Positions 25,692 through 40,782 are shown, numbered from the stretch's first letter. The stretch is DNA of 48,569 nt from an uncultured Bacteroidales bacterium (GCA_964293155.1 CAXYYA010000028.1:1-48569), one strand, 5' to 3'. The notes: generated from the letters alone by a model not told the origin. Made by a program: numbers and translations.

Positions 25692-26948
25692 TTATCTTGG
25701 AGATTGTTTTCCGCCTTCTCTTCTCATTCCGCCACCTTCTTTTTCAACCGGAGTGTTGGACAACTGGTTTTTACGATTCCGTTGTTCATCTTTCACGTTC
25801 TCTTTTATTCCGTCTTTGTGAACATCTTTGCCGAATTCTATTTCAGTGTTTTGATCCCTGAGCAATTGTCTTTGTTCGTTTGTAAGGGATTTAATGAACG
25901 CTTTCTGTCTTTCAGTTCTGCTCAACGTTTTGTCTTCCAGAATGTCGAGTTGCTTTTGGGTCAGTGAGTTTCTGAATCGGTTTTTAGCCGGTTCCGCATT
26001 ATTGTCTGCTGTTTCCCCCTGGCGATTTTGAAGATTCGTGCGTTCCTGATTTTCGGTTTGCAGTTTTGTCTCCGCTTCGTCTAGTAAGTTTTTAATTTCG
26101 TTTAAATGATTTTCCTTTAGCTCATTCGACAAATTCGGTTCTACTTTTAACGGGGTTGGCTCCTGCAACTGAATTTTCTCCTGACTCATCGTTCTCTGCC
26201 TTTCCGGTTCGGGTTTCATTTCGTCTTTTGGAATGACGGCAGGTTTTTCTTCCGTGATATTCATATCTTTTTCTTCTACGGCTACAGTTACTTCCGGAGT
26301 TACCTCAGTAGGATTGTTGTGATGCTGAGAAATAATTTCGAACTGTTTATCCGCCTTCAGCCTTGCTTTCTGACCGGTCGTTATCACAACTTCGTTTTTT
26401 TCGGCAAACTCCACAAGCATCACTTTTCCATGTTCGCAATTCACCTGGTATTCATTTTCGCGAGCCGTTACCAAAAATCGTGTTCCTAAAACCACCGTTT
26501 TGGCCTTTTCAGAAACAACTTCGAACCTACTTCCGCTTTCCACTTCAAAATAAGCTTCGCCGTTTAGCTTTGTTGTCCGGCTGAACTTCCACAGCAAAGG
26601 TTTGTAGCTCAGCGACGAATTGGCGTGCAACACCACCTTGGAATTGTCCGGCAAAAGAAAACTCTTTTCAGCTATCACGGTTTTCACATTCTTTGTATAT
26701 AATGTTGCTGTAACAGCAAATGAAACCAATAAAGCGATCGAGGCTACTGCCGCGTATTTCAACAGTTGGAAATACCGGACGGGCTGAACTTTCTTCCCGG
26801 TTGGGTTAGCATCCAGTTTTGCTTCCATTTCCATCCAAATATCCTCTTTGGACCTGATCCATTGAGGTCGGGTGTTGGAAATGATATCTTCTACTTCCTT
26901 CGAAAATACGATATTTTCTTTTTCGGAATATGTATGTTTAATAATCAT
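25692..26948 (-). CDS. FecR-family anti-sigma factor with an extended low-complexity C-terminal domain
   Basis: 418 aa. One TM helix (AAVASIALLVSFAVTATLY). FecR-type periplasmic domain (LPDNSKVVLHANSSLSY ... GEAYFEV ... VLGTRFLV). The C-terminal ~100 aa are homologous to the downstream secreted protein. Confidence 0.8.
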   Translation of the reverse strand: MIIKHTYSEKENIVFSKEVEDIISNTRPQWIRSKEDIWMEMEAKLDANPTGKKVQPVRYFQLLKYAAVASIALLVSFAVTATLYTKNVKTVIAEKSFLLPDNSKVVLHANSSLSYKPLLWKFSRTTKLNGEAYFEVESGSRFEVVSEKAKTVVLGTRFLVTARENEYQVNCEHGKVMLVEFAEKNEVVITTGQKARLKADKQFEIISQHHNNPTEVTPEVTVAVEEKDMNITEEKPAVIPKDEMKPEPERQRTMSQEKIQLQEPTPLKVEPNLSNELKENHLNEIKNLLDEAETKLQTENQERTNLQNRQGETADNNAEPAKNRFRNSLTQKQLDILEDKTLSRTERQKAFIKSLTNEQRQLLRDQNTEIEFGKDVHKDGIKENVKDEQRNRKNQLSNTPVEKEGGGMRREGGKQSPR

Positions 26949-26957
26949 AGGGTTTGG

Positions 26958-27440
26958 TTATAATAATGATTTTTTCAAAAATTGTAATGCTGCACTCATT
27001 CGTTTTTCTACAGCTTTCACACTTAAGCCCAGACGTTCGGCAATTTCCCAGTATTTCAAGCCCTCAATCCTCGACATTAGAAATACGGCTCGTTGCTTTT
27101 CGTTCAAACTGTTAAGTGCGATTTTATACTTTTCAAGTAACTCTTTGTGACTCAATGTATCTTCTGTCGAAGGCTCGTTACCGTAATAACGGATCGAAGC
27201 TATATAGTTCATTTCCAATACATCACGTCTATATTTACTAACAAACATGTCACCGGCAATTTTATAGAGGAGACGTTTTGCTGTTGTTTTATCTACCTCG
27301 AATTGTTTCTCCCAAAGCCGCATAAAAACCTCCTGTGCTATGTCTGAAGCATCATCCGGCCCCGCACCTCTATAATACAGGTAACCCCGTACCGAATCGA
27401 AGTAGGTATCGAACAAATATTTAAAATCCTCTTTTGTCAA
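26958..27440 (-). CDS. ECF-type RNA polymerase sigma factor (regulon 1)
   Basis: 160 aa. Region 2 DIAQEVFMRLWE. Region 4 HTH LNEKQRAVFLMSRIEGLKYWEIAERLGLSVKAVEKRMS. TTG start, since a stop lies 5 codons upstream. Confidence 0.85.
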   Translation of the reverse strand: MTKEDFKYLFDTYFDSVRGYLYYRGAGPDDASDIAQEVFMRLWEKQFEVDKTTAKRLLYKIAGDMFVSKYRRDVLEMNYIASIRYYGNEPSTEDTLSHKELLEKYKIALNSLNEKQRAVFLMSRIEGLKYWEIAERLGLSVKAVEKRMSAALQFLKKSLL

Positions 27441-27708: not shown

Positions 27709-28323
27709 TTATTTCACCAAATTCAAACCATCCTTTGCCGATTGATCCGTTGGCGAGATAATGAGAACCGTGTTGAAAAGCCGTTGCGCATCGTTCTTTT
27801 TCCCGAGGAAATATTTTGTCCAGGCGCTCATCAGCGTAGAGTAATAATCGAACGGATACATCTGTTGCACCAAATCGAAATATTTCTCGGCTTCCATAAA
27901 GTTTTTCCGATAATAATAAATGTTTCCCAGCGCGTAATTTACCCGCGAATTCACCTTGTCCAGCAAAAGAATTTTTTTGTAAACCGCTTCCAATTCATCG
28001 GTTTTTTTCTGCGCTTCCAGCGGATAGCACAGGCCGAGCAGCGCTTCAACCGCTTTAGGAGCTATGTCCACCGCTTTTTGGTAAAATTTCTTGCTGCTTT
28101 CGTAATCTTTGGAAAGATAATACAACCAACCCATTCTCAGAAATTTATGATAATCGAATCCATTCAGGCTGTTTAATTCGCTGATGGCTTTCTGGTAATC
28201 GCCTGACGACTCGTACTGATAACTGTTTGCAAAAACCTGCGAAGGATTCACCTGTGCCGATGCGGTAATTAAGCCCGCCGCCAGCAGAAAGGTGAGTACC
28301 GTTTTTTTAATTAAAAGTTCCAT
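27709..28323 (-). CDS. Secreted TPR-repeat protein
   Basis: 204 aa with a signal peptide. Repeated A-x3-Y/F-x2-A-type TPR helices. Its start overlaps the upstream gene by 13 nt. Confidence 0.7.
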   Translation of the reverse strand: MELLIKKTVLTFLLAAGLITASAQVNPSQVFANSYQYESSGDYQKAISELNSLNGFDYHKFLRMGWLYYLSKDYESSKKFYQKAVDIAPKAVEALLGLCYPLEAQKKTDELEAVYKKILLLDKVNSRVNYALGNIYYYRKNFMEAEKYFDLVQQMYPFDYYSTLMSAWTKYFLGKKNDAQRLFNTVLIISPTDQSAKDGLNLVK

Positions 28324-29696
28324 TGTAACGCGAGATTTAAAAGATGATTATTATATTTGTATGTTGTGTAATTGGTTGACGAATAGGCGTATCCTTCCCT
28401 TTGTTGCCATTGATATCCGGCCGATAACATGGTTTTTTTGATAAAATAGGAGAGGGAAGCACCCGCAAGGGCTTTAACGGGATCGTACGTGTCGTAAACT
28501 AAAAATGAGTGCCCGGTAATGTAATTTTGATGATTCCCGATGCTGAACGCCCCATCCAGCCACAGCGATTTGGCTAATTTTACACCCAAATTTTGAGAAA
28601 AAACAACTTGTGTGCCTGTCCAGGCGTTTTGGTTGTAGATGGCTGCAAGAGCGGTTGTTCCGTAAAAATCGAGGTTTCCCAGCGGATAATAAGTGAGCGA
28701 TCCTTTTGCCTGATACTGATGTCCGCCGCCGAAATTGGAATAAGCCACGGCAATTTCGGGCAAGGTGTACGCAGAGCGTTTGTTAAGAAATGCCAGCATG
28801 GAGAAAGCCGAAATCGTGTTTCCGGTTGATGCGGTGTAATATATGGAAGGATAATAAAAACCGCCTCCGCCAGGGCCCCCGCCTCCTCCACCCGGGCCGT
28901 ATCCGCCGGCACGCGTTCCCATAGTGGCAGATGCAACAGCGGTCGTAGTGTACGGGATCGCTTTATCAATCTTTTCGATGTTGTAATACGCGCCGGCAAA
29001 TCCCCAGGTAACGTTATTATCCGAGAAAAAATCAAATCCGGCGATCAATTGATGTTGAGACAATCTCTCTTCTTTTACCAATCCCGTGCTGTTTGACCGC
29101 TGAAACTTGGTGTTATACAGTTGATATCCGAGTTTTAGCTTGGCCTTGTCGGAGAGTTTAAACCCAACGCCCAGCGTAGTGAATACCATATCCTGAAACT
29201 GGTTCAGCGAATCGTAGCCCATAAAATTTGAACGCAGATCGGGTTTGTTGTCGTTCGTAAGATAACCGCCTGAGAGCGCAATAAAATCCATCGCCGAAGG
29301 CGAATATCCGATAGCGGCCTGCGTGTGTGGCGCGAGCGATTTGGCAAGTATATCGGCATTGTTTTTCTGGCCGCTCAGCAGGTAGGCGTAATACAGGCTT
29401 TCCAACAGAGCCGGCTCGGTGGAAGTTTCTGCAAGCGTTTTTTTGTAAAATTCCGCCGCTTTGGCATAATTTTTCAGTTCATAATAAGCAATAGCGGTGC
29501 GGTAATTCAGATAATAAAAATCAATGTTTTGCGCCTGCGCCTGTTTGCTGGTCTCAATCAGATTTTTATAATCCTTTTGCAGGTATTGCTGATAGGTAAT
29601 GCTGTCAATGCGGGTTGCTTCCGGGCTTTGTTGCGCCTGTAGCGCAAACGTCCACATCATCATTACCGTTGCGAATGTTATACCCATTCGATACAT
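28311..29696 (-). CDS. Outer-membrane protein with an N-terminal TPR region and a C-terminal beta-barrel
   Basis: 461 aa with a signal peptide ending ALQAQQ. TPR-like N-terminal ~110 aa. Contains the Gly tract GGYGPGGGGGGPGGGGFYYP. The barrel-like C-terminal part ends in LALQWNF (terminal aromatic residue). Confidence 0.6.
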   Translation of the reverse strand: MYRMGITFATVMMMWTFALQAQQSPEATRIDSITYQQYLQKDYKNLIETSKQAQAQNIDFYYLNYRTAIAYYELKNYAKAAEFYKKTLAETSTEPALLESLYYAYLLSGQKNNADILAKSLAPHTQAAIGYSPSAMDFIALSGGYLTNDNKPDLRSNFMGYDSLNQFQDMVFTTLGVGFKLSDKAKLKLGYQLYNTKFQRSNSTGLVKEERLSQHQLIAGFDFFSDNNVTWGFAGAYYNIEKIDKAIPYTTTAVASATMGTRAGGYGPGGGGGGPGGGGFYYPSIYYTASTGNTISAFSMLAFLNKRSAYTLPEIAVAYSNFGGGHQYQAKGSLTYYPLGNLDFYGTTALAAIYNQNAWTGTQVVFSQNLGVKLAKSLWLDGAFSIGNHQNYITGHSFLVYDTYDPVKALAGASLSYFIKKTMLSAGYQWQQREGYAYSSTNYTTYKYNNHLLNLALQWNF

Positions 29697-31849
29697 AAGA
29701 CATGTTTTTTAGTGTTAATTTCCATTCTGTTTTTTATTACCGTGATAGTTGATTCTTTCACCGGCATTTTTATATTGAACGACTTAGCGTCTATAATGCT
29801 TTGATATACAATTTTTTCAGGATAAAAAATATGATCCGATTCCGTTAATTGCGAACGGTAATTTATGGTTGTGAAAATAACAAAAGGCGCCAAAAAATCC
29901 TGAAACCAACGCGTTCCGAAGGGGTGTTCCTTGGTAAGCGGTATTTTATCGGTAACGGAGATCTCTTTTTCGTTGGACAGCAATAATTTAAAGCAACTAC
30001 GGTAAAACAAATACAACGGCGATGATTTTCTTCCTTCAAAATCGGTAAAATAGAACATGGTGCCATCGTTTTCCACGTACGCCACGGCTTTCGATTTTTC
30101 GCAACGGATGTAGGTTTTGTTGTATTCGTCGGTAGCAATTGTCCAGGGATAATTTTCGTTGTCGTAGGTAACTTTCAGCAACCGGCCCGGTTTGCCTTCG
30201 AAAGCATCTTGCGCCAGCAACGAAGGAACTACGTTGAAGATCGTAGTATCCTGTTTCGGAACCTCGCCGATGTGCAAGAGCGGCTTACCGGCTGTTTTTT
30301 CAAAGAAATAACCCATGGGGTACGCATGTGTTGCCGACCCGATTTCGGGCGACAACTGCACCTGAAAATGAAGGTGCGGCTCCGGCGAACGTCCCGAATT
30401 GCCGCATGCGGCAAGTACGGTTCCTTTTGTTACATAATCGCCGGTTCGCACGTTAAAACTGTCTTTTTTAAGGTGGCTTAGCTGCGAGTATAACCCGTTC
30501 AAATGATTGATAATGATCGTATTTCCCCAATTCTTTTTCGTGTTTACATCATTTATTTCATTGTCTTCGGTAATGTTGCTGATCATGTACACATAACCGT
30601 CGGCCGGAGCCAACACCGGTTTGTTGTAACAGTAAAAATCTTCTTTCTGCGCACACCGGCCGAAACACGTTTTTCCTTCTTCGTCCGTGATCATAAAATC
30701 CAACGCTTTTCCCCATGCGCCCAGGTGGGTTATTGTACCGTTGTAGCCCTGCGTTACACGCCATTCTCCCAAAAAAGGCAATTGCATTTTAAACAGCATG
30801 TTTTGTGCGAAACGCTGCATGTAATTCACGTTTTTATATACCGTTTTCTCGGGATTATAATATTGAATATACGGAAAAATAAAGAACCGGCTAAAGCTGC
30901 GTTGTTTGAGAATGAACAGTACGAGAATGGATAAAAGACTGAATGATAATGTGTAAGAAGACAGCCCGGTATCCGATATCAAACTCTCCACGCTGGCATA
31001 AAACAGAAACAGGGCGGGCGTGAGGCCAATGACCAGTATGTAGCTGTAGATGTTGGGGATGATAAAGAAGCTTCCGATTGCCATTCCCCAGAAAATGTAG
31101 TTAACGCCAGCCAGATCCTGCGTGAGTTCTGCGATATCCACGCCAAGCAATTTACTGATGATAAATGCAAAGAAAAATCCAAAAAATGCTACCGTGGATT
31201 TGATGCGTGAGTGAAAAAGCAATGCAACGGCTATGATGATGCCGACTAACACGCTGTCGGTAAAGAAAATGGATGCCAATGTTTTAAAATAATAAAACAA
31301 CATGGGCGGCAAGTGCGCATTATCGAGTGAGTGGACGAAAGTGTACCACGGTACTTTCATTTGCCCGGCCAACACGATGGTGAAACGGTCGAACGGAATA
31401 ATGTACTCAATGTTCGTGAACGATTTTACCGAAAGATCAACGATGAACAACGTGAAAACAAACGGCAGAGTAAGCACGGGAATATCGTGCTTCGCAAAAA
31501 CCGATTCGAGCCATACCGTGAACATGAATACCAGAATAACCGATAAAACAAAAAGAATAATGAACGAGCCGTTCACGTAAAATTTGTAAACCAGACTCAA
31601 CCCGACAAAAACGGCGTTAAATCCGTACAATCCGCTCTTGATCCTTTTCTTCGAAAATCCGAGCCCGTGCGCGATGATGTTCGTCAGAACCACAGCCGAA
31701 AGTCCGCCCAATCCCAGCCGGATGTCCAGCATGCTAAGCACCAGCAAGATGATCGCTAACCACCTGCTTTGCGAGAAAAATATCATGGCATAGCTGTTCA
31801 GCGTGCCATCGAGATACATCAACGCGTATGATTTGAGACTTTGTTTCAT
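29678..31849 (-). CDS. Polytopic membrane domain (urea-transporter-like, tentative) fused to a C-terminal M23 (LytM/lysostaphin-type) metallopeptidase
   Basis: About 330 aa of TM helices, with N-terminal LNSYAMIFFSQSRW resembling UT-family starts. M23 motifs follow: HLGAWGKALDF and GNSGRSPEPHLHFQV. ATG 31849 is preferred; the track's TTG is at 31870. The stop overlaps the next gene by 19 nt. Confidence 0.65.
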   Translation of the reverse strand: MKQSLKSYALMYLDGTLNSYAMIFFSQSRWLAIILLVLSMLDIRLGLGGLSAVVLTNIIAHGLGFSKKRIKSGLYGFNAVFVGLSLVYKFYVNGSFIILFVLSVILVFMFTVWLESVFAKHDIPVLTLPFVFTLFIVDLSVKSFTNIEYIIPFDRFTIVLAGQMKVPWYTFVHSLDNAHLPPMLFYYFKTLASIFFTDSVLVGIIIAVALLFHSRIKSTVAFFGFFFAFIISKLLGVDIAELTQDLAGVNYIFWGMAIGSFFIIPNIYSYILVIGLTPALFLFYASVESLISDTGLSSYTLSFSLLSILVLFILKQRSFSRFFIFPYIQYYNPEKTVYKNVNYMQRFAQNMLFKMQLPFLGEWRVTQGYNGTITHLGAWGKALDFMITDEEGKTCFGRCAQKEDFYCYNKPVLAPADGYVYMISNITEDNEINDVNTKKNWGNTIIINHLNGLYSQLSHLKKDSFNVRTGDYVTKGTVLAACGNSGRSPEPHLHFQVQLSPEIGSATHAYPMGYFFEKTAGKPLLHIGEVPKQDTTIFNVVPSLLAQDAFEGKPGRLLKVTYDNENYPWTIATDEYNKTYIRCEKSKAVAYVENDGTMFYFTDFEGRKSSPLYLFYRSCFKLLLSNEKEISVTDKIPLTKEHPFGTRWFQDFLAPFVIFTTINYRSQLTESDHIFYPEKIVYQSIIDAKSFNIKMPVKESTITVIKNRMEINTKKHVLCIEWV

Positions 31850-31949
31850 TTGTTTATGATTTCGGGACAAAAAACAAAGACATACGGAACAAGACTTTGC
31901 GTTGCATTATTCAACACCGGCCTGATGACGGTAAATTGCGTTGCTATTT

Positions 31950-33305
31950 TCAAAGTTTAAACCCTTTCAGATGTTCCGGTGTAACCTCCTGTTGTACAAT
32001 GGATTCCACGGTTTCGCTTTTGCGAATAAGATGCACTTTCCCCGTGGTATCAATCATGACCACATTGGGACGTAGCGTAATGAATTGCATCCATTGTGTC
32101 ATGTTGTAAGCGCCCACTTCGTGCACCACCACGCGGTCGTCCTTTTTTAACAGCGGTAAGCTAACGCTTTCGCGCAGGCAGTCAATGTTCATGCAAAGCG
32201 GCCCGTACAGCGCCATTTCTTCGGCATGCTGTGTGAAATCCTGCGCTGGCGATACTTTGTGATTGTACCAAAACGATGTGAACATGATATTTACCCCGAT
32301 ATCGAGCACGGTAGCCCGACGGCCGTTGGCCAGGCGTTTGGTTGCAAGCACGGAACCGAGCAGATAACCCGCTTCGTCAATCAATGCGCGTCCGGTTTCG
32401 AGGATCAGCAAGGGCAATTCATCGGGTTTAAAGCCGAATTGCAAAATGGTTCCGGTGATGGCTTCGGCATAATCGTCGAACGTAGGAATAACATCAGCAC
32501 CTTGCAGATACGAACCTTTGAGTGTGTTGGACGAACAGAATCCGCCACCCATATCAATGTATTTTATCTTTACGCCGGTTTTGTTTGCCGTATTTTGCGC
32601 CAGTTCGCACAGTTTGCGCGCCGCAACGGCATAAGCGTTGGCGGTGAGCATGTAGGTGCCGATGTGGGTGTGTAATCCTTCCAACTGAAGGTTTGGCTGC
32701 GTAATGATCTTCATGATCGCATTCCACGCCTGCCCGCTTTCGTAGTTGAAGCCGAACCTGTCCCACTGCGGATAAACGCCGGTGTCCATATTTACGCGAA
32801 TGGCAACACGCGCTTTTTGTGAAGTTCCTTCCAAAATCTCGATAAGCGAATAGAGCTCGTCGAAATGATCAATGTGGATGAGCGAACGGTTTTCCACGGC
32901 TATTTTCAGGTCATCGGCCGATTTATCAGGGCCGTTGAAAATGATCAGATTGCCCGGAACGCCGTTGCGAAGGGCTTTTTGGTATTCAAAACCCGATACG
33001 ACTTCCGCCCAGCTTCCTTCCTGATGGAAAACGTTGCAAACGGCATCCAGATAGTTGGTTTTGTAGCTCCAGGCGAATTGCACTTTCGGATAGCGCATTT
33101 TAAAGGCTTTTTGTGCTTTTTGATAGGTTTGGCGGATGGTTTTTTCGCTGATTACGAAGAGCGGCGAGCCGTATTCATCCATTAACCCGGCAACTGCCAC
33201 GCCATCAATTTGTTTCACAGGTATGTATTCGGTTCTGCTGCCGAATTTATTCATCAGGTTTGTGTTCAGTTTCTGAATCACAGGACGTTCGTAGGTTGGT
33301 TTCAT
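31950..33305 (-). CDS. PLP-dependent decarboxylase, Orn/DAP/Arg decarboxylase family 2 (LysA-like fold)
   Basis: 451 aa. PLP-lysine context FAWSYKTNY. Also contains DMGGGF and ETGRALI. C-terminal beta-barrel domain. Confidence 0.8.
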   Translation of the reverse strand: MKPTYERPVIQKLNTNLMNKFGSRTEYIPVKQIDGVAVAGLMDEYGSPLFVISEKTIRQTYQKAQKAFKMRYPKVQFAWSYKTNYLDAVCNVFHQEGSWAEVVSGFEYQKALRNGVPGNLIIFNGPDKSADDLKIAVENRSLIHIDHFDELYSLIEILEGTSQKARVAIRVNMDTGVYPQWDRFGFNYESGQAWNAIMKIITQPNLQLEGLHTHIGTYMLTANAYAVAARKLCELAQNTANKTGVKIKYIDMGGGFCSSNTLKGSYLQGADVIPTFDDYAEAITGTILQFGFKPDELPLLILETGRALIDEAGYLLGSVLATKRLANGRRATVLDIGVNIMFTSFWYNHKVSPAQDFTQHAEEMALYGPLCMNIDCLRESVSLPLLKKDDRVVVHEVGAYNMTQWMQFITLRPNVVMIDTTGKVHLIRKSETVESIVQQEVTPEHLKGFKL

Positions 33306-33391: not shown

Positions 33392-34447
33392 TTATCGAGC
33401 ATATTCCCCTGTTGTGGAAATCTGCTGAAATTCCGATATATCCACGATCATATCGTACGCGTAGCGGATAAATATTTTGCCGCTTTCGTACTCCGTGAAT
33501 GGTAGTACATCCTCGCTCAACGCCATTTTCACCAAAGCTTCGGCGTGATTTTGGCCGCAGCCGATAGCAAGGTACATCCAGGCGGGAAAACGGGGATTCA
33601 TTTCCAGCAGATAATATTCGTCTTTTTTTGTTTTGATAAACTCCAGTTCGCAACCGCCTTTCCATCGGCTGTTCTCAATTACGCGACGAGAAATCTCCAT
33701 GAGTTTATCGTCTTCCAACGAAACGCCCGACCATGCTTTTCCCTTGTCCGTGATGTACAATTTTCGCATCGGCACCGCGCCGATGCATCGGCCTTTTCCG
33801 TCGCCGATGGCGGTAACGTTTACTTCCGTTCCGGTTACAAACTCCTGGACGATAATGGGATATCCCCATTTGGCGACGATTTTGTAAAAATAAGAGCTGG
33901 CCTGCTCGTAGTTCGAAGCAATGTAGGCATCGTAGTATCGCCCTTTGATCACCATGGGATAATCGAGGTCATCTTCCAGTTTTTTAATTTCCGAAACCTG
34001 ATTAATGATATGGCTTTCCGGTACTTTTATATCGTATTTTTCGCCGAATTTATTCAGTTCCGATTTGTGGCGCTCTTCAAATTGCTCATGCGATGGCAGG
34101 AAAGTGGCTATCCCAAGCTCCGATTTTAATTCGTGTTGAATTTTGATGAAATTGTGCAATTCGGCATCAAAATTCGGGATGAGCACGTCAATTTTTTCCT
34201 GGCTCACGATGTATTGCAGCCGCTCTTTGAGCATGGCTGAGCCCGCGGTGGGCAAAGGCAGCTGATAGACTTTGTCCACCAATTCGTGCATATAAATTCC
34301 CGGTTCCAGCGTTTCGTACGATAAGCCGACAATGCGCACATCGAACGCCGAACTGTCTTTCAATGCACGAATAACGGGAATTCCCGGCCCGGGGCTGTCA
34401 ATGTTGTTGAGCCCAGTGACCGCTACGGTAATTTTTCGCTTATTCAT
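33392..34447 (-). CDS. ATP-grasp fold carboxylate-amine ligase
   Basis: 351 aa. Pre-ATP-grasp Rossmann-like N-terminus (KITVAVTGLNNIDSPGPG). Central VQEFVTGTEVNVTAIGDG. LLEMNPRFPAW is an E-x-N metal-binding motif. Confidence 0.8.
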   Translation of the reverse strand: MNKRKITVAVTGLNNIDSPGPGIPVIRALKDSSAFDVRIVGLSYETLEPGIYMHELVDKVYQLPLPTAGSAMLKERLQYIVSQEKIDVLIPNFDAELHNFIKIQHELKSELGIATFLPSHEQFEERHKSELNKFGEKYDIKVPESHIINQVSEIKKLEDDLDYPMVIKGRYYDAYIASNYEQASSYFYKIVAKWGYPIIVQEFVTGTEVNVTAIGDGKGRCIGAVPMRKLYITDKGKAWSGVSLEDDKLMEISRRVIENSRWKGGCELEFIKTKKDEYYLLEMNPRFPAWMYLAIGCGQNHAEALVKMALSEDVLPFTEYESGKIFIRYAYDMIVDISEFQQISTTGEYAR

Positions 34448-34685
34448 TTTCGGATAGTTGGTAGCTTTTTAACATATCCAGAAAATCGTTGAGGTCTTTC
34501 TCGGCCGTGTGGGCATCGAGTTCGTATTCATCCTGAAGTGCTTTCAAAACGGTTTCGTTACTTTCACCGTTTTTTAATTGTTGAAGAACGAAAACGCCGG
34601 TTTGGTTTACACTGAAACTGTCGCCTGTAAGTGGATTAAAGATAAATCCGTTTTCGCTGATGGCTATGTTTTTTCTAATGTTCAT
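34440..34685 (-). CDS. PqqD-family protein (peptide-binding RRE-like chaperone)
   Basis: 81 aa of typical PqqD size and pattern (F.NP.TGDSF.VN.TG.FVLQ.L..G ... L....Y.......KDL.DFL..L). Overlaps the ATP-grasp start by 8 nt. Confidence 0.65.
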   Translation of the reverse strand: MNIRKNIAISENGFIFNPLTGDSFSVNQTGVFVLQQLKNGESNETVLKALQDEYELDAHTAEKDLNDFLDMLKSYQLSENE

Positions 34686-34719: not shown

Positions 34720-35328
34720 TTACGGTTGTACGATATCGGAGAACTGTGACAAATTTAATACTTTTGGTTGATAATCAATGCCTCTGCGCGATAAATTTCG
34801 TACAAACGCCCGCAAATGGTTCTCCGAAGCGCGCAAGAGGTTGGAATAAATCCGTTGGATATCGGGATTGTCGGTTTTCTGCAAGTGCGATTGCAGGTCT
34901 TCGATATCCTGTTCTTCGATCAACGCTCCGGCTTGCAGCGCCTCGATGAGCGTTGTGCCTTTGGTGAGCTCGGTGTACATTTTCTGTAACTCACGATTGG
35001 TAAACACGCCTTCCGCTTTCGCGAGGTCTTTTAACCCATACGTATCCACAAGCCACATCATGGCGTTCTGGTGCACCGTTTCGCTACGCGAAATATTTCG
35101 GAAGATAGGGATGCTATACTGCCGGGCGTAAAACGTATAAACGTCGTGGGCAAGTTTTTCTTCTTCGCGCATGTACTCAATGCTTTGGATGTCGGCCTTC
35201 GTCAGATTTTGCGTTGAAGCCGGTATTCCCATCGTCTTATTCTGTGTGGTTTTAGCCCCATCGGCAGCTTGGGGCAACAAAAGTATTGCCCCTGCCGCGA
35301 TCAGAATGAATAAATATTTTGTTTTCAT
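34720..35328 (-). CDS. Secreted ferritin-like DUF2202-type protein (copy 2)
   Basis: 202 aa with a signal peptide. Motifs MREEEKLAHDVY, SE..H and a second half LIEEQDIEDL ... SENHLRAF. Confidence 0.6.
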   Translation of the reverse strand: MKTKYLFILIAAGAILLLPQAADGAKTTQNKTMGIPASTQNLTKADIQSIEYMREEEKLAHDVYTFYARQYSIPIFRNISRSETVHQNAMMWLVDTYGLKDLAKAEGVFTNRELQKMYTELTKGTTLIEALQAGALIEEQDIEDLQSHLQKTDNPDIQRIYSNLLRASENHLRAFVRNLSRRGIDYQPKVLNLSQFSDIVQP

Positions 35329-35332
35329 TTTT

Positions 35333-36025
35333 TTATGTGTTTATGATAGCGTTGAAATCATCGTTGCTCAATAATTGAGGTTGATATGCAATACCGTTGA
35401 ATTTGAGATTTGCGACAAAGGCTTTCAAATGAAACTGTGAAGCACGGAGTAGATTACCGTAAATTCTTTTGATAAACGGGTTTTCTGTTTCGGCTATTTC
35501 TCTTTGAAGATCAATAATATCGTGTTCTTCGATAAAAGCGCCGGCTTTGTAAGCATCTACAACTGTAAGGGCTTCGGTTGTAAGCTTTGTGTATAAATTT
35601 TGCAATTCTTCGATGTTAAATACCCCCGGTACCGTTTCGGCGGGAGTCTCAATTTTGTAGAGATTAATAAGCCAGGCGATAGCTTTTCCGTGTGCTATCT
35701 CGCTTTTGGAGATGTTGCTGAACACGGGTCTGGCGAATTTTTCGTTAAAATACACATACACATTATTGGCTAATTTTTCTTCTTCGCGCATGTACAGGAT
35801 GCTGTTTATTTCACTTTCGGTGAGTGGCGCGAGTTGCGTATTTGTCAACAAACAAAGCGAATCGGTGGTTGCAGCCAGTGTTGCATCAAGTCGCGTAGTT
35901 GAAACTGCGTTTATCAATGCGGCTTGTTCGGCATTTTCTTCCGGTGAATTTACGCTGTTCGCTTCACAACCGAAAAGCAAAATTGCAAGAAATGCCACGA
36001 CGGAAATTTTTTGATAAGTTTTCAT
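35333..36025 (-). CDS. Secreted ferritin-like DUF2202-type protein (copy 1)
   Basis: 230 aa with lipoprotein-like signal LLFGCE. Motifs MREEEKLANNVY, SKSEIAHGKA and FIEEHDIIDL ... ASQFHLKAF. Paralog of the next gene, 4 nt apart. Confidence 0.6.
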   Translation of the reverse strand: MKTYQKISVVAFLAILLFGCEANSVNSPEENAEQAALINAVSTTRLDATLAATTDSLCLLTNTQLAPLTESEINSILYMREEEKLANNVYVYFNEKFARPVFSNISKSEIAHGKAIAWLINLYKIETPAETVPGVFNIEELQNLYTKLTTEALTVVDAYKAGAFIEEHDIIDLQREIAETENPFIKRIYGNLLRASQFHLKAFVANLKFNGIAYQPQLLSNDDFNAIINT

Positions 36026-36077
36026 AATGAAAAAGTTGGTTTACTGTGATTAAGTTAATGAGATAAGCGTTTTGTAA

Positions 36078-36108
36078 GAAAAAATGGGGAGCGAATCCCC
36101 ATTTTTTT
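36078..36108 (-). terminator. Bidirectional intrinsic terminator after the Gly/Arg repeat protein gene
   Basis: ATGGGGA-GCGAA-TCCCCAT flanked by A7 and T7, 16 nt after stop codon 36124. Confidence 0.8.
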
Positions 36109-36123
36109 GTGGTTGGTGCGTGG

Positions 36124-36687
36124 TTATTTTGTGGTTTCCCTACGGTCGCAAATACCGTTTTTATTGGCGTCCACAAAATTTACCGCACTGCCTTTTCCAT
36201 TCCGAAGGCCGGTGCCTTTCCCTGTACCGCGTCCCTGGCGCGGTGTTCCGTTTTCGAAGTTGTCACAAATGCCGTCTTTGTCGGCATCTACGAAATTTGC
36301 TCCACCACCTCTGCCGTTACGCAGTCCGTTGCCATAGCCTTGTCCGCGTCCTCCACGGGGAGTTCCGTTTTCGAAATTGTCGCACACGCCATCTTTATCG
36401 GCATCCACAAAGAAGCGTCCTTGTCCTCTGCCGTTGCGTAATCCCTGGCCTTTGCCTTGTCCGCGGCCGCTACCGTCGAGCAGTCGTTGTTTGCCGTTGG
36501 CATTCGGATTTCCGGGTGTTCCGTTCTCGAAATTATCGCAAACGCCGTTGTTGTTTTTGTCCACAAATGCAGGTCCGGTTTGAGCGGTTTTCGCCGTTTC
36601 CTTTGCTGCCTGATTTTGATTTTGGGCGGTTGCTAATCCTATGGTGGCAACCAGCGCCATTGCAGTGATAAATACTTTTGTTTTCAT
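36124..36687 (-). CDS. Secreted repeat protein with four FVDxDKDG(V/I)CDNFENGTP modules separated by Gly/Arg-rich linkers
   Basis: 187 aa with a signal peptide ending ATAQ. The modules carry a DxDxDG calcium-loop-like motif and one Cys each. Linkers are of the type GRGQGYGNGLRNGRGGG. Repeats 2 and 3 are 39 aa each. Confidence 0.7.
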   Translation of the reverse strand: MKTKVFITAMALVATIGLATAQNQNQAAKETAKTAQTGPAFVDKNNNGVCDNFENGTPGNPNANGKQRLLDGSGRGQGKGQGLRNGRGQGRFFVDADKDGVCDNFENGTPRGGRGQGYGNGLRNGRGGGANFVDADKDGICDNFENGTPRQGRGTGKGTGLRNGKGSAVNFVDANKNGICDRRETTK

Positions 36688-36717
36688 AATAATCTTATTT
36701 TTAATTGTTTATTTAAT

Positions 36718-37293
36718 TTATCTGGTTTCGTTCCAATCGCGTCCGTAGCGATGCCGGTATCCGCGTCCCATACCGAGACTGTCGGTTCGGTTATATCCGT
36801 ATCCGTACCCGCGACGGGCATTCACCGTTTCATCGCGATACAACGGTAGGAATGCTCTTTCTAATTGAGCGCACTGCGCGTCGTTGCACGCCGATTTTAT
36901 CTTCAGGTAGAAATCGTTTGTAAGCTTTTTCAGTTCTGCGTGATGATTTCCGATGTGATCCGATAACGCATTTAATTTTGTTTCGTCGGGTTTCGGTTTG
37001 TTCAACTCCATGAACATTTCGTTTTTCAGCGAATCCATTTCGTAAATCAGCAGGTTGGCACGGGGTTGAAATTCCCGGTTCGCTGCGCGAAAAACATCCA
37101 TCTGATCATTGTCGAATCCCAGCCTTTGCCGAAAATACCTTCCGGTGAGCGGGGGCTGGCCTTCGTCAATAACAATTGCTGTGTTATCGTCTTTTTCCTG
37201 CTGATTGTGATAGACGATAGTTCCGATGGTTGTCAGGTTCAGCACCACAAGCAGTGCAATTACCCACATCATTATTTTATTCGTCTTATTCAT
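36718..37293 (-). CDS. Membrane-anchored periplasmic Spy/CpxP/ZraP-like protein (heavy-metal-sensor type), tentative
   Basis: 191 aa with an N-terminal TM anchor (IMMWVIALLVVLNLTTIGTIVY) and a helical periplasmic part. Occupies the usual position after an ECF sigma/anti-sigma pair. Overlaps the anti-sigma stop by 8 nt. Confidence 0.5.
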   Translation of the reverse strand: MNKTNKIMMWVIALLVVLNLTTIGTIVYHNQQEKDDNTAIVIDEGQPPLTGRYFRQRLGFDNDQMDVFRAANREFQPRANLLIYEMDSLKNEMFMELNKPKPDETKLNALSDHIGNHHAELKKLTNDFYLKIKSACNDAQCAQLERAFLPLYRDETVNARRGYGYGYNRTDSLGMGRGYRHRYGRDWNETR

Positions 37294-37579
37294 AATCGTC
37301 GAAATTATAATAGCCTAAATTCTCGATCTGACTGTCGTTTATGTTCATCGTAAACTCGTGAGAAACGCTTTTCTGGTAACTGTTACCGATGCTTACGCCT
37401 AAAAATGCAACGGCAGCAAGGCTGGCAGCCACAACCACAGTTTGCCAAACGGGCGTTCTGCGACGCTCCGGTTGTTGCCTTTTTTCGATTTCGGCCATCA
37501 CCCGCGTACTCAGGAACGGATTATGTTCCGTTTGCTTTTCGCGTTTGATGAAATCGTCTATGTACTGTTCCGTTTTCAT
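37286..37579 (-). CDS. Small single-pass anti-sigma factor (regulon 2)
   Basis: 97 aa with one TM helix (WQTVVVAASLAAVAFLGVSIG). Lies immediately downstream of the ECF sigma gene. Confidence 0.6.
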   Translation of the reverse strand: MKTEQYIDDFIKREKQTEHNPFLSTRVMAEIEKRQQPERRRTPVWQTVVVAASLAAVAFLGVSIGNSYQKSVSHEFTMNINDSQIENLGYYNFDDYE

Positions 37580-37596
37580 TTTTTGTTCGTTTTATA

Positions 37597-37626
37597 GGTT
37601 AGACATTTGTATTGATTATTTCCTAC
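37597..37626 (-). promoter_or_regulatory. ECF-type promoter motif, regulon 2, internal site (GTAGGAAA-N13-TGTCTAA)
   Basis: The minus strand reads GTAGGAAATAATCAATACAAATGTCTAACC. The -35-like block overlaps the last codons and stop of the sigma gene. The -10-like block is 20 nt before the anti-sigma ATG 37579. Confidence 0.6.
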
Positions 37627-38161
37627 GGTCATATTCTAATTTTTTTTGCAGAGTGCTTTTTGCACGTTGTAAAAGTTGTTCCACAGCGCCTTCCGATTTT
37701 TTCATGACGGCGGCAATTTCTTTCTGCGGTAATTCTTCGTATTTACTCAGGATGAAAGCTGTTCGTTGCGAATCGGGCAGGGAATTGATGGCGTTTTTTA
37801 TCCGCTTGTCCCGTTCCGATTGTTCCAATCGTTCCAACGGCGTCTTTTCCTCACTCTGTTTGTGAAAGATGTTTTCCAACGATTCCACCACGCGGTTCTT
37901 CTTTTTTCGATTCACAAAATTGATACTCGCGTTTACGGTAATCCGGTACAGCCATGTAACAAATTGGGCTTCGCCCTTGAAATCGGGCAACGATTGATAT
38001 ATTTTAATGAAAACTTCCTGCGTGATATCTTCCGCATCTGCTTTGGAGTGCACAAAACCCAACGTCGTTCGGAACACCATACCCTGGTATTTCTCCATAA
38101 GTTCTTTAAAGACAATGGTGTTACCTGAAATTATTTCTTGTATGAGTTGCTCGTCCGACAT
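37616..38161 (-). CDS. ECF-type RNA polymerase sigma factor (regulon 2)
   Basis: 181 aa. Region 2 EDITQEVFIKIYQ. Region 4 LPDSQRTAFILSKYEELPQKEIAAVMKKSEGAVEQLLQRA. Confidence 0.9.
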   Translation of the reverse strand: MSDEQLIQEIISGNTIVFKELMEKYQGMVFRTTLGFVHSKADAEDITQEVFIKIYQSLPDFKGEAQFVTWLYRITVNASINFVNRKKKNRVVESLENIFHKQSEEKTPLERLEQSERDKRIKNAINSLPDSQRTAFILSKYEELPQKEIAAVMKKSEGAVEQLLQRAKSTLQKKLEYDRRK

Positions 38162-38392: not shown

Positions 38393-39664
38393 ATGAAAAC
38401 GAATTTTTTTATTTTTGGCATAATATCCCTTATGCTTGTATCCTGTTATCAGGAATATCCTGCACATTTTAGGCAGTATATTGATGTGAATGCTTCCATT
38501 GATGGGCTGAAAACCCGCGCCACAAATGCCTCATGGGAAGCGAATGATGCCATCGGAATTTATATGAAAATCAGTGGAGAGGGTTTGTCTGTACCAGCTT
38601 TGGCTGAAAATTCGAAATATATTACCGACGGAACGTCCGCTTTTCAGTCTGCTACGGCCGATGGAGCTATCAGCTTTCCGCTCGACGGCACTGATGTGGA
38701 TTTCATCGCGTATTATCCACATCAAACAACAATCACGGACTTAACGTATCCGGTAAATGTTTCCGATCAAAGCAGCCTGCCGGCTATTGACTTGTTGTAT
38801 TCAAACAATGCCGCGGGGCTAAATTCTCAAAATCCGGATGTTGGGCTGACTTTCGTTCACCAATTATCGAAGATAAACGTGCTAATTATGCCCGAAGATG
38901 CAACGTCTGATTTAAGCGGTTTAACCGTAACGATGACCGGTGTGGGAACCTCCGCAACATTTTCATTAGCCGACGGAACGCTTTCGGCGCCCGCTATCAC
39001 GGGTAATGTCGCATTCAATATGAGTTCCGACGGACGCACTGCTCAGGCTATTCTATTGCCGATGGCCGATTTCACGGGTAAATCGCTTATTATCGCTTTT
39101 GGATCCAATTCTTACGAATTCCCGTTGACTCAAGGGGTAAATATCACTTCTTTCGAAAAAGCAACGCAATACACGTATAACGTTACGCTTTCATCGCAAG
39201 CACTGTCGGTTTCCAACGCAACCATCACCGATTGGGTTACCGGCCCGTCGGAAAATGTGATCATCGGAAGCGTCGGAACGGCGCCTGTAACCGGCGGAAC
39301 ACTCGATGATCCGTTTACTATTGAGGAGGCAATTGCCAATCAGGGGTTGATGGATAGATGGGTAAGAGGGTTTATTGTGGGTTACTATAAAACGACTTCC
39401 TATAAATCATTTACCACAAGTGTAGATGATGTGACGAGCACCACCAACATTGCTTTAGCAACAGTTAGCACAGAGACCGATTCAACCAAAACGTTTCCTG
39501 TACAATTGTCTGCTACCCAAATCAGAGATACACTCAATCTGCTGGATCATCCTGAAAATTTGGGCAGAGAAGTTCTGGTACGAGGAGATTTGGCAACTTA
39601 TCAATACATTGCCGGAATGAAGGCGGCTGATGGAGCAGTAATTAACGGAGATACCATTCCCTAA
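38393..39664 (+). CDS. Fimbrillin-family (Mfa/FimA-like) lipoprotein with an additional C-terminal domain
   Basis: ATG 38393 gives MKTNFFIFGIISLMLVSCYQ (lipobox). Fimbrillin-like blocks SWEANDAIGIYM and DFIAYYPH. The C-terminal ~130 aa (DPFTIEEAIANQG ... VLVRGDLATYQ) look like a separate OB-like module. The track start 38321 is unlikely. Confidence 0.6.
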   Translation: MKTNFFIFGIISLMLVSCYQEYPAHFRQYIDVNASIDGLKTRATNASWEANDAIGIYMKISGEGLSVPALAENSKYITDGTSAFQSATADGAISFPLDGTDVDFIAYYPHQTTITDLTYPVNVSDQSSLPAIDLLYSNNAAGLNSQNPDVGLTFVHQLSKINVLIMPEDATSDLSGLTVTMTGVGTSATFSLADGTLSAPAITGNVAFNMSSDGRTAQAILLPMADFTGKSLIIAFGSNSYEFPLTQGVNITSFEKATQYTYNVTLSSQALSVSNATITDWVTGPSENVIIGSVGTAPVTGGTLDDPFTIEEAIANQGLMDRWVRGFIVGYYKTTSYKSFTTSVDDVTSTTNIALATVSTETDSTKTFPVQLSATQIRDTLNLLDHPENLGREVLVRGDLATYQYIAGMKAADGAVINGDTIP

Positions 39665-40782
39665 TTTACGTGATACCCCTGGCTATGCATTTCCGATGCA
39701 CGAAAGAGGGTGTATTTTTCCTCGTTTAGCGGATAATCCCAGCAACCGAGGCTGTGATAGATTTCGCCGCCGAAACCCGATTTGAATTTATACAACCCGT
39801 ACATCGGGTGTTCGGGATCGGGCGTGGGCGATATGCCGAACATATCATACTGGGTGCAGCCTGCGGCTTTCGATAGCCGGATGGCTTCCCACTGCAACGC
39901 GTATGCAGCCATCAGGTTCCGGTTTTCCGACGAAGAGGCGCCATACAAATACGAACCCCTGTTTCCCGAAATTACCAGAAACATGGCTGCGAGCGGTTTT
40001 TGGTTATATTCCGCAATCAAAAGACGCACACGCGCCGGTGAACGTGTATTATCGGCTTTTGCCGAAAGCACGGCTTCAAAGTATTTTATATCGTTTAGCA
40101 GGATACCGTTTCGTGCCGCCGTCTCTTTGTAGAGTTCATACCACGTGGAAATTTCCTCCATCCCTGCCGATTTTACGGTTGCGCCGCGACGTTGTGCCAG
40201 ACGGATGTTGTAGCGGGTTTTCGGTTTCATGCGTTGCAGGATGCTTTCTTCGTCTTGTCTTAGGTTCAGATAAACGGTACTTGCCGGAAGTATGTTGGAA
40301 AGCGCTTTTTTGAAATTCCAGTTTTCCGTATTGAAATTGAACCGGAATTCTTGTGTGCGTAATTCCGGTTCGCCTTTCCATAAGCCGTTTTCATCAAAAT
40401 TATCGGCTTCTTTTGTCCAGTATGATTCCCAACAAAGATCATAGCGAATGAGGATGCAGTTATTCGGTAAATACGGGCGAATGCTTTCCGATAATTCTTC
40501 CAGAAAAAGGCTTTGAAATTCATCGGATGGTTCCAGTTCAGGGCCGTAAGGCACATACGCCACAGAATGATTCCTGTCGATTTGTTGCAGGACGATCAGC
40601 AGGTCTGAAACCAGCAATTTATCGCTCCTGGAATGAAAAATATCCGACTCCCTCGATTTAAACCCGACAGCAAGCGTTTCGGCGCCCAGCTTGTTCTTTA
40701 CTTCCGACCAAAATGCCGTCTGTTGCAGAATGGGCGTTTTGTTCAGTTCGTCCGTGTCTTTTTTCCGAATATCTAACAGCAT
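39661..40782 (-). CDS. FemAB-family (aminoacyl-tRNA-dependent peptidyltransferase fold, GNAT-like) protein
   Basis: 373 aa. The C-terminal half has NRGSYLYGASSSENRNLMAAYALQWEAIRLSKAAGCTQYDMFGI, typical of FemAB/FemX-like proteins. Confidence 0.65.
   Translation of the reverse strand: MLLDIRKKDTDELNKTPILQQTAFWSEVKNKLGAETLAVGFKSRESDIFHSRSDKLLVSDLLIVLQQIDRNHSVAYVPYGPELEPSDEFQSLFLEELSESIRPYLPNNCILIRYDLCWESYWTKEADNFDENGLWKGEPELRTQEFRFNFNTENWNFKKALSNILPASTVYLNLRQDEESILQRMKPKTRYNIRLAQRRGATVKSAGMEEISTWYELYKETAARNGILLNDIKYFEAVLSAKADNTRSPARVRLLIAEYNQKPLAAMFLVISGNRGSYLYGASSSENRNLMAAYALQWEAIRLSKAAGCTQYDMFGISPTPDPEHPMYGLYKFKSGFGGEIYHSLGCWDYPLNEEKYTLFRASEMHSQGYHVN

Follow-up and report, generated by a model that had tools for sequence, protein, structure and literature searches.

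The question raised by this locus is what a channel domain of the urea transporter (UT) family does when it is continuous, in one polypeptide, with a metallopeptidase domain of the M23 family. The gene lies on the minus strand of a 48,569-nucleotide stretch of DNA from an uncultured Bacteroidales bacterium (GCA_964293155.1 CAXYYA010000028.1:1-48569), which was analysed whole and is called the window below. The textbook roles of the two families are narrow (urea permeation for UT, extracellular wall cleavage for M23), and a version that is spread across a phylum, with its peptidase predicted to lie inside the cell and its gene tied to a ligase, a decarboxylase, and exported partners, implies an uncharacterised pathway. 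The evidence points to six genes that are kept together in Bacteroidota as an envelope-spanning module, with the fusion protein (UT-M23) as its inner-membrane component. In the reading favored here, to which we give a probability of about 0.4, UT-M23 would be the inner-membrane hub of a pathway in which an amino-acid conjugate is ligated and decarboxylated, the peptidase trims it, and a small amide passes through the pore. This reading is drawn from the identity of the domains, the conservation of catalytic residues, the obligate fusion, the linkage in an operon, the replacement of one enzyme cassette by another, the predicted topology, and a decarboxylase of the FigC type. The operon context (an ATP-grasp ligase, a decarboxylase, a PqqD protein, and tetratricopeptide repeat (TPR) and outer-membrane partners) was absent from an earlier note on the same DNA, the sequence-only reading, and is the most informative evidence.

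On the minus strand, a single unbroken open reading frame (ORF) occupies 29678..31870 if it begins at a TTG codon (730 aa) or 29678..31849 if it begins at the first ATG (723 aa). The ATG start is right because full-length orthologs are 723 aa long with 100 % coverage, and the sequence-only reading, which had claimed one uninterrupted frame from 29678 to 31849, had both the frame and its start correct. An AlphaFold2 model built from a 70-sequence ortholog alignment (mean predicted local distance difference test score, pLDDT, 86; about 90 in the UT bundle) has four parts: a helical bundle at residues 1-318, a low-confidence linker, the M23 domain, and a beta-rich domain at residues 500-723. The gene and its parts are as follows.

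29678..31849, minus strand: gene 4 of the operon, the UT-linker-M23-beta-domain protein (723 aa; coordinates include the stop codon, which overlaps the start of gene 5 by 19 nt).
30896..31849, minus strand: UT channel domain, residues 1-318, a helical bundle with both LP-box signatures.
30764..30895, minus strand: basic linker, residues 319-362, with low model confidence and a near-invariant motif.
30353..30763, minus strand: M23 (LytM-type) zinc-peptidase domain, residues 363-499, assigned by Pfam, Foldseek, and invariant catalytic residues, and predicted to be cytoplasmic.
29681..30352, minus strand: beta-rich, family-specific C-terminal domain, residues 500-723, without an assigned family.

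The fusion is conserved, and its parts were not found as separate genes in relatives, which settles a point that the sequence-only reading had raised. The best 120 of 2,191 homologs all carry both UT and M23; full-length homologs have about 720-735 aa, and shorter ones come from short contigs. Named sources include Petrimonas, Proteiniphilum, Paludibacteraceae, and Flavobacteriia, and the window itself, by hits at 98-99 % identity, belongs to a Petrimonas-like Bacteroidales genome. Among genomes representing species, at least 563 confirmed loci carry the fusion, essentially all of them in Bacteroidota, and “Ca. Kapaibacterium” also has the operon. Orthologs of UT-M23 are 38-81 % identical. An exhaustive HMMER search with the soluble half (residues 350-723) as query gave 513 clusters at E<=1e-30, with the module at about 350-720 of proteins of about 700-750 aa; the few matches of 390-430 aa are fragments that either lack an initiator Met or have their first residue within the linker or the final UT helix. 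By these searches, the M23 and beta module appears essentially only behind a UT domain. The combination had been called unusual; it is uncommon generally, yet it forms a large phylum-wide family in Bacteroidota and appears in a 2026 survey of UT evolution in Biol Direct (PMC12998343), which lists UT+M23, with M23 C-terminal to UT and A0A399T3G1 as an example. The passages of that survey bearing on the combination give only the domain pairing; function, topology, a third domain, an operon, and cassette types are not mentioned in them. The fusion as such is therefore already listed there, and what is new here is the predicted cytoplasmic M23 domain, the orphan third domain, the six-gene module, the cassette replacement, and the conjugate-type decarboxylase pocket. 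In the library of papers that was searched, no paper brings M23 and ATP-grasp together with a urea transporter, none joins PqqD, ATP-grasp, and a decarboxylase in Bacteroidetes, and nothing addresses the function or context of the fusion.

By profile, predicted fold, and signature residues, the N-terminal domain is a true member of the UT family that belongs to a divergent subfamily and is not an ortholog of characterized urea transporters. Pfam UT (PF03253) matches residues 14-314 over profile positions 2-291 of 292 (E=1.4e-44, 152.9 bits, cut-off 25), and phmmer aligns residues 3-336 with the solved UT-A, UT-B, and dvUT. In Foldseek comparisons of the AlphaFold2 model, the helical bundle has a TM-score of 0.83 to dvUT (3K3G) and of 0.76-0.79 to UT-B. 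Comparison with the UT family by hidden Markov model and by structure prediction, the two checks proposed in the sequence-only reading, thus gave a full-profile match and a UT fold, in agreement with its description of this part as urea-transporter-like. The LP-box motifs line up with those of UT-A and UT-B in the phmmer alignment; among the 70 orthologs, P124, P129, F130, and F303 are invariant, position 127 is Ser or Thr in 56, and position 300 is Thr or Ser in all. The likeness to dvUT (3K3F, 3K3G) and UT-B (4EZC, 6QD5) thus includes the same helical fold, LP boxes with the pore Thr/Ser, and a predicted intracellular C-terminus. In contrast to mammalian UTs, the “NNP” and “DNPW” stretches are not kept (alignment, judged by eye). 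UT-M23 also differs from known urea channels in carrying about 400 extra residues, predicted to be cytoplasmic, and in the position of its gene, which has enzymes of biosynthetic type as neighbors and not urease or other genes of urea metabolism. The UT pore is a narrow slot that admits urea-sized amides, and peptides are too large for it. The earlier suggestion that passage and cleavage are coupled therefore fails in the sense of peptides threading the pore, given the narrow UT pore and a peptidase predicted to be cytoplasmic. The alternative offered there, regulation of the peptidase by a transported solute, is conjectural.

The M23 domain is almost certainly an active enzyme, as judged from conservation, because its zinc ligands and catalytic histidines are invariant in the 70 orthologs. 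In M23 enzymes, five positions matter: the zinc ligands (a His, an Asp, and the second His of an H-x-H motif) and two catalytic His residues; here the invariant residues are H375, D384, H459, H492, and H494. Pfam Peptidase_M23 matches residues 409-498 (E=1.5e-16, 60.8 bits, cut-off 28.7), and Foldseek matches this part at a probability of 1.0 to Csd1/2, DipM, lysostaphin, and LasA, with LytM also matched. Both strings quoted in the sequence-only reading are present (HLGAWGKALDF at residues 375-385 and GNSGRSPEPHLHFQV at residues 483-497), and its H-x-H is H492-L-H494; the H-x3-D that it named is wrong, since H375 and D384 are nine positions apart, i.e., H-x8-D. Spacings from His to Asp longer than H-x3-D occur in the M23A branch. 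The fold and the five catalytic positions are common to M23/LytM enzymes (lysostaphin, LytM, MepM/ShyA, Csd1-3, DipM, and the M23A enzymes LasA/beta-lytic), whereas the H-x8-D spacing, an insert of about 20 residues after the Asp, the lack of a signal peptide, and a predicted cytoplasmic position between a channel and an orphan beta domain set this protein apart from typical members. A Pfam scan detected no peptidoglycan-binding module (LysM, SH3b, or OapA) in UT-M23.

The two remaining parts of the protein are the linker and the beta-rich domain. The linker is modelled with low confidence (pLDDT about 50 at residues 319-345) and holds a motif that is near-invariant in the 70 sequences (E334-K-T-x-Y338-K ... 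R346-F ... K354 ... L357-P-F); a near-invariant motif in a segment that looks disordered suggests a docking or autoinhibitory segment. Residues 500-723 are modelled confidently (pLDDT about 87) and have no Pfam or NCBIfam match, so that the C-terminal extension described earlier as motif-less and about 200 aa long is real and measures about 225 aa.

The M23 and beta domains are very probably on the cytoplasmic face of the membrane, a prediction from sequence and model that supplies the topology for which the sequence-only reading had asked. It follows from four features. The UT alignment runs on into a segment homologous to the C-terminal tail of UT-B, which is intracellular in UT-B; downstream of residue ~318, there is no hydrophobic segment in the sequence and no extra transmembrane helix in the model; across the family, the net charge is -2.3 in the central loop, whose homolog in UT-B is extracellular and glycosylated; and the 48-residue linker carries on average 7.1 Lys and Arg residues and a net charge of +4.4. 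Such a site would be atypical for M23, whose usual extracytoplasmic location does not agree with the prediction. To our knowledge, a cytoplasm-facing M23 peptidase would be the first of its kind.

One high-GC homolog of 1305 aa (P0229) continues from the UT-M23-beta architecture into a signal-peptide-like hydrophobic stretch (LLALALTLLPAALAAQP) and then into the TPR/barrel partner. Either the two genes are truly fused in it or the overlapping downstream gene was read through, and it looks like read-through; if real, it would agree with an M23/beta domain in the cytoplasm and a chain that crosses the membrane after it.

UT-M23 is the fourth of six genes that follow one another on the same strand, with overlaps between stop and start codons, and the same six genes surround orthologs that are only 45-62 % identical. 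Besides gene 4, the operon in the window comprises five genes.

34440..34685, minus strand: gene 1, a PqqD-like (RRE-type) peptide-binding protein of 81 aa, whose stop overlaps the ATP-grasp start by 8 nt.
33392..34447, minus strand: gene 2, an ATP-grasp ligase of 351 aa of the CPSase/PRK12767-like branch (Pfam ATPgrasp_Ter, CPSase_L_D2, ATP-grasp_3).
31950..33305, minus strand: gene 3, a pyridoxal phosphate (PLP)-dependent decarboxylase of the alanine-racemase fold, 451 aa, of the FigC/SbnH/BtrK type, with FigC as its best solved relative.
28311..29696, minus strand: gene 5, a signal peptide, TPRs, and a region of about 330 aa, 461 aa in all, whose stop overlaps the start of gene 6 by 13 nt.
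27709..28323, minus strand: gene 6, a TPR protein of 204 aa with a signal-like N-terminus, probably periplasmic.

Gene 1 matches Pfam PqqD (E=1.1e-12) and the NCBIfam lasso-type PqqD chaperone family (9.6e-12). Gene 5 has a signal-like N-terminus and ends in ...WNF, as do most of its orthologs, and its region of about 330 aa is, judging from sequence, probably an outer-membrane beta-barrel; a profile search for gene 5 against PDB and Pfam gave TPR matches only and no match to a barrel family. Gene 6 matches multiple TPR families, with E down to 1.6e-15.

The gene context was compared, with phmmer and blastp, across 82 non-redundant loci. Both TPR genes lie downstream of UT-M23 in 60 of the 61 loci with at least 4.5 kb of downstream sequence. 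Upstream, the loci fall into two types. The full type A set, as in the window (PqqD, ATP-grasp, and fold-III decarboxylase), is present in 28 of the 52 loci with at least 6 kb of upstream sequence, and the PqqD gene is found in all type A operons, overlapping the ATP-grasp gene. The full type B set, which is divergently transcribed, is present in 22 of the 52 and consists of a VOC-like protein of 149 aa, an OKR_DC_1 decarboxylase of 909 aa (LdcC/AdiA/SpeF family), and an ATP-grasp protein of 495 aa that meets NCBIfam PRK06524; the order of the TPR genes is swapped in this type. The type A and type B decarboxylases have different folds, and between the two ATP-grasps the likeness is confined to the nucleotide-binding core (hhalign probability 49 %). 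In a neighbor-joining tree of UT-M23 proteins, type B forms one clade nested in type A, which implies that one lineage swapped the cassette for non-homologous analogues and kept the UT-M23/TPR core. Since the cassette was swapped and the core kept, the combination of a ligase and an amino-acid decarboxylase appears to be functionally tied to the fusion protein. No other conserved partner gene was found in the 82 loci.

Several details of the type B cassette may be added. Its first gene (e.g., L001:9263-9712, minus strand, and 29 orthologs) is VOC/glyoxalase-like by eye (…WFEIP…GYFALFIDSEGNRLALHS), the 149-aa protein has no Pfam or NCBIfam match, and about 220 N-terminal residues of the decarboxylase are without assignment. 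The 149-aa protein was considered as an analogue of PqqD and rejected, with an hhalign probability below 1 %.

The decarboxylase indicates what kind of substrate the cassette handles. Its nearest solved relative is FigC/FslC (7KH2, an N-citrylornithine decarboxylase; 1e-54), followed by diaminopimelate (DAP) decarboxylases (1e-43) and BtrK (3e-27). FigC, SbnH, BtrK, and MccE have been described as a subfamily that decarboxylates conjugated amino acids in biosynthesis, with diagnostic positions named (PMC7857480). At these positions, C371-M372 beside the catalytic Cys corresponds to C354-M355 of FigC (C-M-N-I-D in the window enzyme, C-E-S-S-D in DAP decarboxylase), and in the specificity helix T343 and Y347 correspond to T327 and Y331 of FigC, whereas DAP decarboxylase has a carboxylate-binding Arg at the position of T343. 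The citrate-binding residues H357 and R387 of FigC are replaced by I374 and Q404. Among 45 operon orthologs, the diagnostic positions vary little or not at all (C-M and T343 in 45/45 and 41/45; I374 and Q404 invariant). The pocket is thus, on its residues, neutral and aromatic and of the conjugate type seen in FigC, SbnH, and BtrK. Three other identities were rejected: LysA, because the NCBIfam equivalog cut-off is not reached (223.3 bits against 297.9) and the C-E-S-x-D and Arg residues are absent; N-citrylornithine decarboxylase, because I374 and Q404 stand in place of the citrate-binding H357 and R387 (NCBIfam FslC, 217.6 against a cut-off of 500); and plain Orn, Lys, or Arg decarboxylase, on pocket residues.

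The pairing of a carboxylate-amine ligase with a LysA-like decarboxylase recurs in FigA/FigC (rhizoferrin), SbnE/SbnH (staphyloferrin B), and BtrJ/BtrK with the carrier BtrI (butirosin). In these enzymes, as in the window enzyme, the decarboxylase pocket no longer has the residues by which a free side chain, basic or acidic, would be bound, and in the three precedents the ligase makes the conjugate first and the decarboxylase then takes the alpha-carboxylate. BtrJ is itself an ATP-grasp enzyme. The operon differs from the FigA/FigC-type pairs in having an ATP-grasp ligase in place of an NRPS-independent siderophore (NIS) synthetase, from butirosin in having PqqD in place of an acyl carrier protein as the small partner, and from the siderophore pairs in that the citrate residues of FigC are not kept and no conserved siderophore-type transporter belongs to the operon. 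The gene 2 orthologs are 56-86 % identical across the phylum, and the 120th database match is still 68 % identical; the ATP-grasp is thus far more conserved than the accompanying UT-M23 and has no close characterized relative.

In the favored reading, these parts would be arranged as a cytoplasm-to-surface pathway with UT-M23 at the inner membrane. In the cytoplasm, the ATP-grasp enzyme would make an amide conjugate via the side chain of an alpha-amino acid, and in type A a peptide bound by the PqqD protein may be the site of this reaction or take part in it. The FigC/BtrK-type decarboxylase would then strip the alpha-carboxylate, in the “ligate, then decarboxylate” order of rhizoferrin, staphyloferrin B, and butirosin. 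The M23/beta unit, tethered to the membrane, would cut a single amide or peptide bond in the conjugate, which would thereby be trimmed or set free from a carrier peptide. A product or by-product that is small, neutral, and an amide or urea-like would cross the inner membrane via the UT pore. The TPR protein and the TPR/barrel protein would receive the exported species. Peptidase-containing ATP-binding cassette (ABC) transporters (PCATs) and ClbP-type prodrug peptidases likewise have a peptidase fused or tethered to a membrane translocation unit, by analogy only; they use C39 or S12 peptidases, ABC or three-transmembrane-segment anchors, and unrelated folds, and the UT pore cannot pass peptides. 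A more specific form of the scheme, in which the UT pore was recruited as a dedicated conduit and a cytoplasmic M23 domain with a ligand-binding beta domain is docked below it, releasing a small amide, ureido, or N-acyl-diamine product of the ATP-grasp/decarboxylase pair into the pore for the TPR/outer-membrane partners to carry to the surface, is unlikely.

Several observations weigh against the hub scheme. Its mechanism rests on inference, and a more ordinary function has a real chance. The cytoplasmic topology is a prediction only, and peptidoglycan or secreted substrates are almost the only targets of characterized M23 enzymes. The UT domain scores 98.8 bits against the NCBIfam yut equivalog TIGR03441, below its cut-off of 274.6. 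The substrate of the ATP-grasp enzyme cannot be read from sequence because its nearest solved relatives are of the carboxylase/carbamoyl-phosphate synthase (CPSase) type at about 1e-8; these relatives are remote (CPSase large chain, 4e-8; 2pn1, 1e-7), and PurD, Ddl, urea amidolyase, and cyanophycin synthetase match at about 1e-3. The cassette swap was a single event and not a recurrent one, so that the argument from it is supportive and not decisive, and neither cassette is adjacent in 2 of the 52 loci (L055, L063). Type B operons are without PqqD. A search of the 82 loci for a conserved ORF of at least 30 aa that could encode a precursor or carrier peptide gave none beyond frame or antisense shadows of the six genes. 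The idea that PqqD serves as a carrier like LysW, with Glu at its C-terminus, was rejected, since its tails, though acidic, do not conserve the last residue.

The two loci that lack an adjacent cassette have 9-10 kb of upstream sequence, carry the UT-M23/TPR core only, and lie at the base of the type B clade; from this position, their cassette may be elsewhere in those genomes.

The rival that survives best, which is nevertheless rather unlikely, takes UT-M23 as a true urea channel anchoring a periplasmic M23 peptidoglycan endopeptidase (MepM/LytM-like), with TPR partners that regulate wall remodelling and enzymes that are unrelated or modify wall precursors. Databases name these proteins “urea transporter/murein DD-endopeptidase MepM,” the characterized M23 relatives in PDB are all cell-wall or secreted enzymes, and the operon partners are exported TPR proteins. 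A LytTR-type regulator also lies upstream in about 15 loci, and a secreted triple-M23 protein adjoins the operon in “Ca. Kapaibacterium.” A periplasmic peptidase sits poorly, however, with a protein in which no transmembrane segment separates the cytoplasmic end of the UT domain from M23 and the linker carries about seven Lys or Arg residues. The enzyme cassettes are linked in 50 of the 52 informative loci and were retained through non-homologous replacement, and the score below the UT equivalog cut-off counts against a true urea channel.

The neighbors just named have the following details. The LytTR-type (by eye) response-regulator-like gene lies just upstream in about 15 type A loci (e.g., L018:6143-6844, plus strand), and a membrane protein of about 341 aa that is sometimes present with it (L018:5139-6146) may be its sensor. 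The protein of “Ca. Kapaibacterium” (L087:6696-9740, plus strand; 1014 aa) is secreted, has three tandem M23 domains and a type IX secretion system (T9SS) C-terminal sorting domain, and is separated from the downstream PqqD gene by a 20-nt gap; it was seen in one lineage only, and its link to the operon is unproven. In the window, a FemAB-family gene (aminoacyl-tRNA-dependent peptidoglycan cross-bridge transferase-like; 39661-40782, minus strand) lies about 8 kb from the M23 gene beside a TonB-dependent receptor, outside the conserved module.

A pathway for a ribosomally synthesized and post-translationally modified peptide (RiPP), or one built on a scaffold peptide, is quite unlikely. PqqD would act as a RiPP recognition element (RRE) presenting a ribosomal peptide, the ATP-grasp and decarboxylase would modify it, and M23 would be a leader or release peptidase fused to the exporter, as in PCATs. 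This would account for the resemblance of the PqqD protein to lasso-type RRE chaperones and its place beside a modifying enzyme, as well as for a predicted cytoplasmic peptidase in one chain with a membrane domain, and ATP-grasp enzymes do mature several peptide classes. It is opposed by the lack of a conserved short ORF of at least 30 aa across the 82 loci (shorter or unlinked genes are outside that search), by the PqqD-less type B operons, and by a UT pore far too narrow for peptides. The module is also phylum-wide, with an ATP-grasp that is 56-86 % identical, unlike the variable clusters of specialized metabolites.

Export of a polyamide or exopolymer, in the manner of synthase-dependent systems, is improbable. 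The ATP-grasp would polymerize an amino-acid-derived unit, UT-M23 would be the platform or chain trimmer, and the TPR/barrel protein would be the outer-membrane porin (cf. PgaA, BcsC, and AlgK-AlgE). In PgaA, BcsC, AlgK/AlgE, and PelB, an exported TPR module with an outer-membrane barrel, which is only a probable one here, is likewise encoded beside the inner-membrane component, and the exported TPR and TPR-barrel proteins here have weak NCBIfam matches to PgaA, BcsC, and PrsT; M23 enzymes classically cleave glycine-rich linear peptides, and the ATP-grasp profile weakly touches cyanophycin synthetase (1e-3). In contrast to those systems, the operon has no glycosyltransferase or cyclic di-GMP receptor, and neither the operon nor its conserved neighbors include a glycosyltransferase or other known polymerase. 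The barrel is itself only an inferred one, the TPR similarities are generic, and a decarboxylated unit is usually not further polymerizable.

A role in stress or nitrogen physiology is equally improbable. In that case, a channel of the urea, ammonia, or CO2 type would be paired with a decarboxylase (acid-resistance-like) or with a carboxylase-type ATP-grasp for a ureido compound, and the M23/beta part would be a regulator or gate. The membership of the type B decarboxylase in the LdcC/AdiA/SpeF family, the CPSase/biotin-carboxylase branch as the closest one for both ATP-grasp types (urea amidolyase matches at about 1e-3), and the retention of the UT pore signatures are consistent with such a role. 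Against it, the operon has no urease, agmatinase, or antiporter, and no riboswitch was found: a search with Rfam at the gathering threshold, covering the window and six loci of both types, gave only a tRNA. In its pocket, the type A decarboxylase follows the conjugate type and not the basic-amino-acid type, and the invariant catalytic residues argue that M23 is an enzyme. Identity as a defense system was likewise rejected, as a PADLOC search matched none of the six proteins.

An assembly or gene-calling artefact that joined two separate genes, the outcome that the sequence-only reading had named as fatal, has practically no chance, since the same architecture of 720-735 aa recurs in independent assemblies and isolates across the phylum, and nothing was found in its support save the 1305-aa homolog that looks like read-through into the next gene.

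Bacteroidota matter in the gut, in soil, in water, and in anaerobic digesters, and the consequences depend on which reading holds. The pathway reading would widen the range of substrates and locations of M23 and the range of permeants of UT, and in hundreds of genomes the annotations “urea transporter” and “MepM” probably mislead. If the conduit form were true, the module would be a new envelope-spanning small-molecule system, housekeeping-like across Bacteroidota; if the function is ordinary urea uptake with wall trimming, the value lies in annotation correction only.

Promoter and terminator scans for the limits of the operon gave counts at chance, in a scan that does not cover Bacteroidota promoters. 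Directly upstream of the operon (34720-38161, minus strand), the window has two tandem DUF2202 (ferritin/rubrerythrin-like) proteins with signal-like N-termini, a DUF6520-like protein, a Metal_resist (heavy-metal resistance) protein, and an extracytoplasmic function (ECF) sigma factor, a cluster that may be a metal- or oxidative-stress module; DUF2202 adjoins the operon in only two other loci. Directly downstream on the same strand (25692-27440, minus strand) lies an ECF sigma factor with a FecR-type anti-sigma partner, and ECF sigma genes are found about 4-9 kb upstream in eight other loci, so that the linkage is inconsistent. Eleven type B loci have an Acyl_transf_3/HGSNAT-like gene about 6 kb upstream. 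The remainder of the window is ordinary chromosome, in which one further fusion is unusual: a protein of 531 aa (9985-11580, minus strand) that joins a dual-specificity (DSP/PTP-like) phosphatase domain to a lipid kinase domain of the diacylglycerol-kinase/YegS type.

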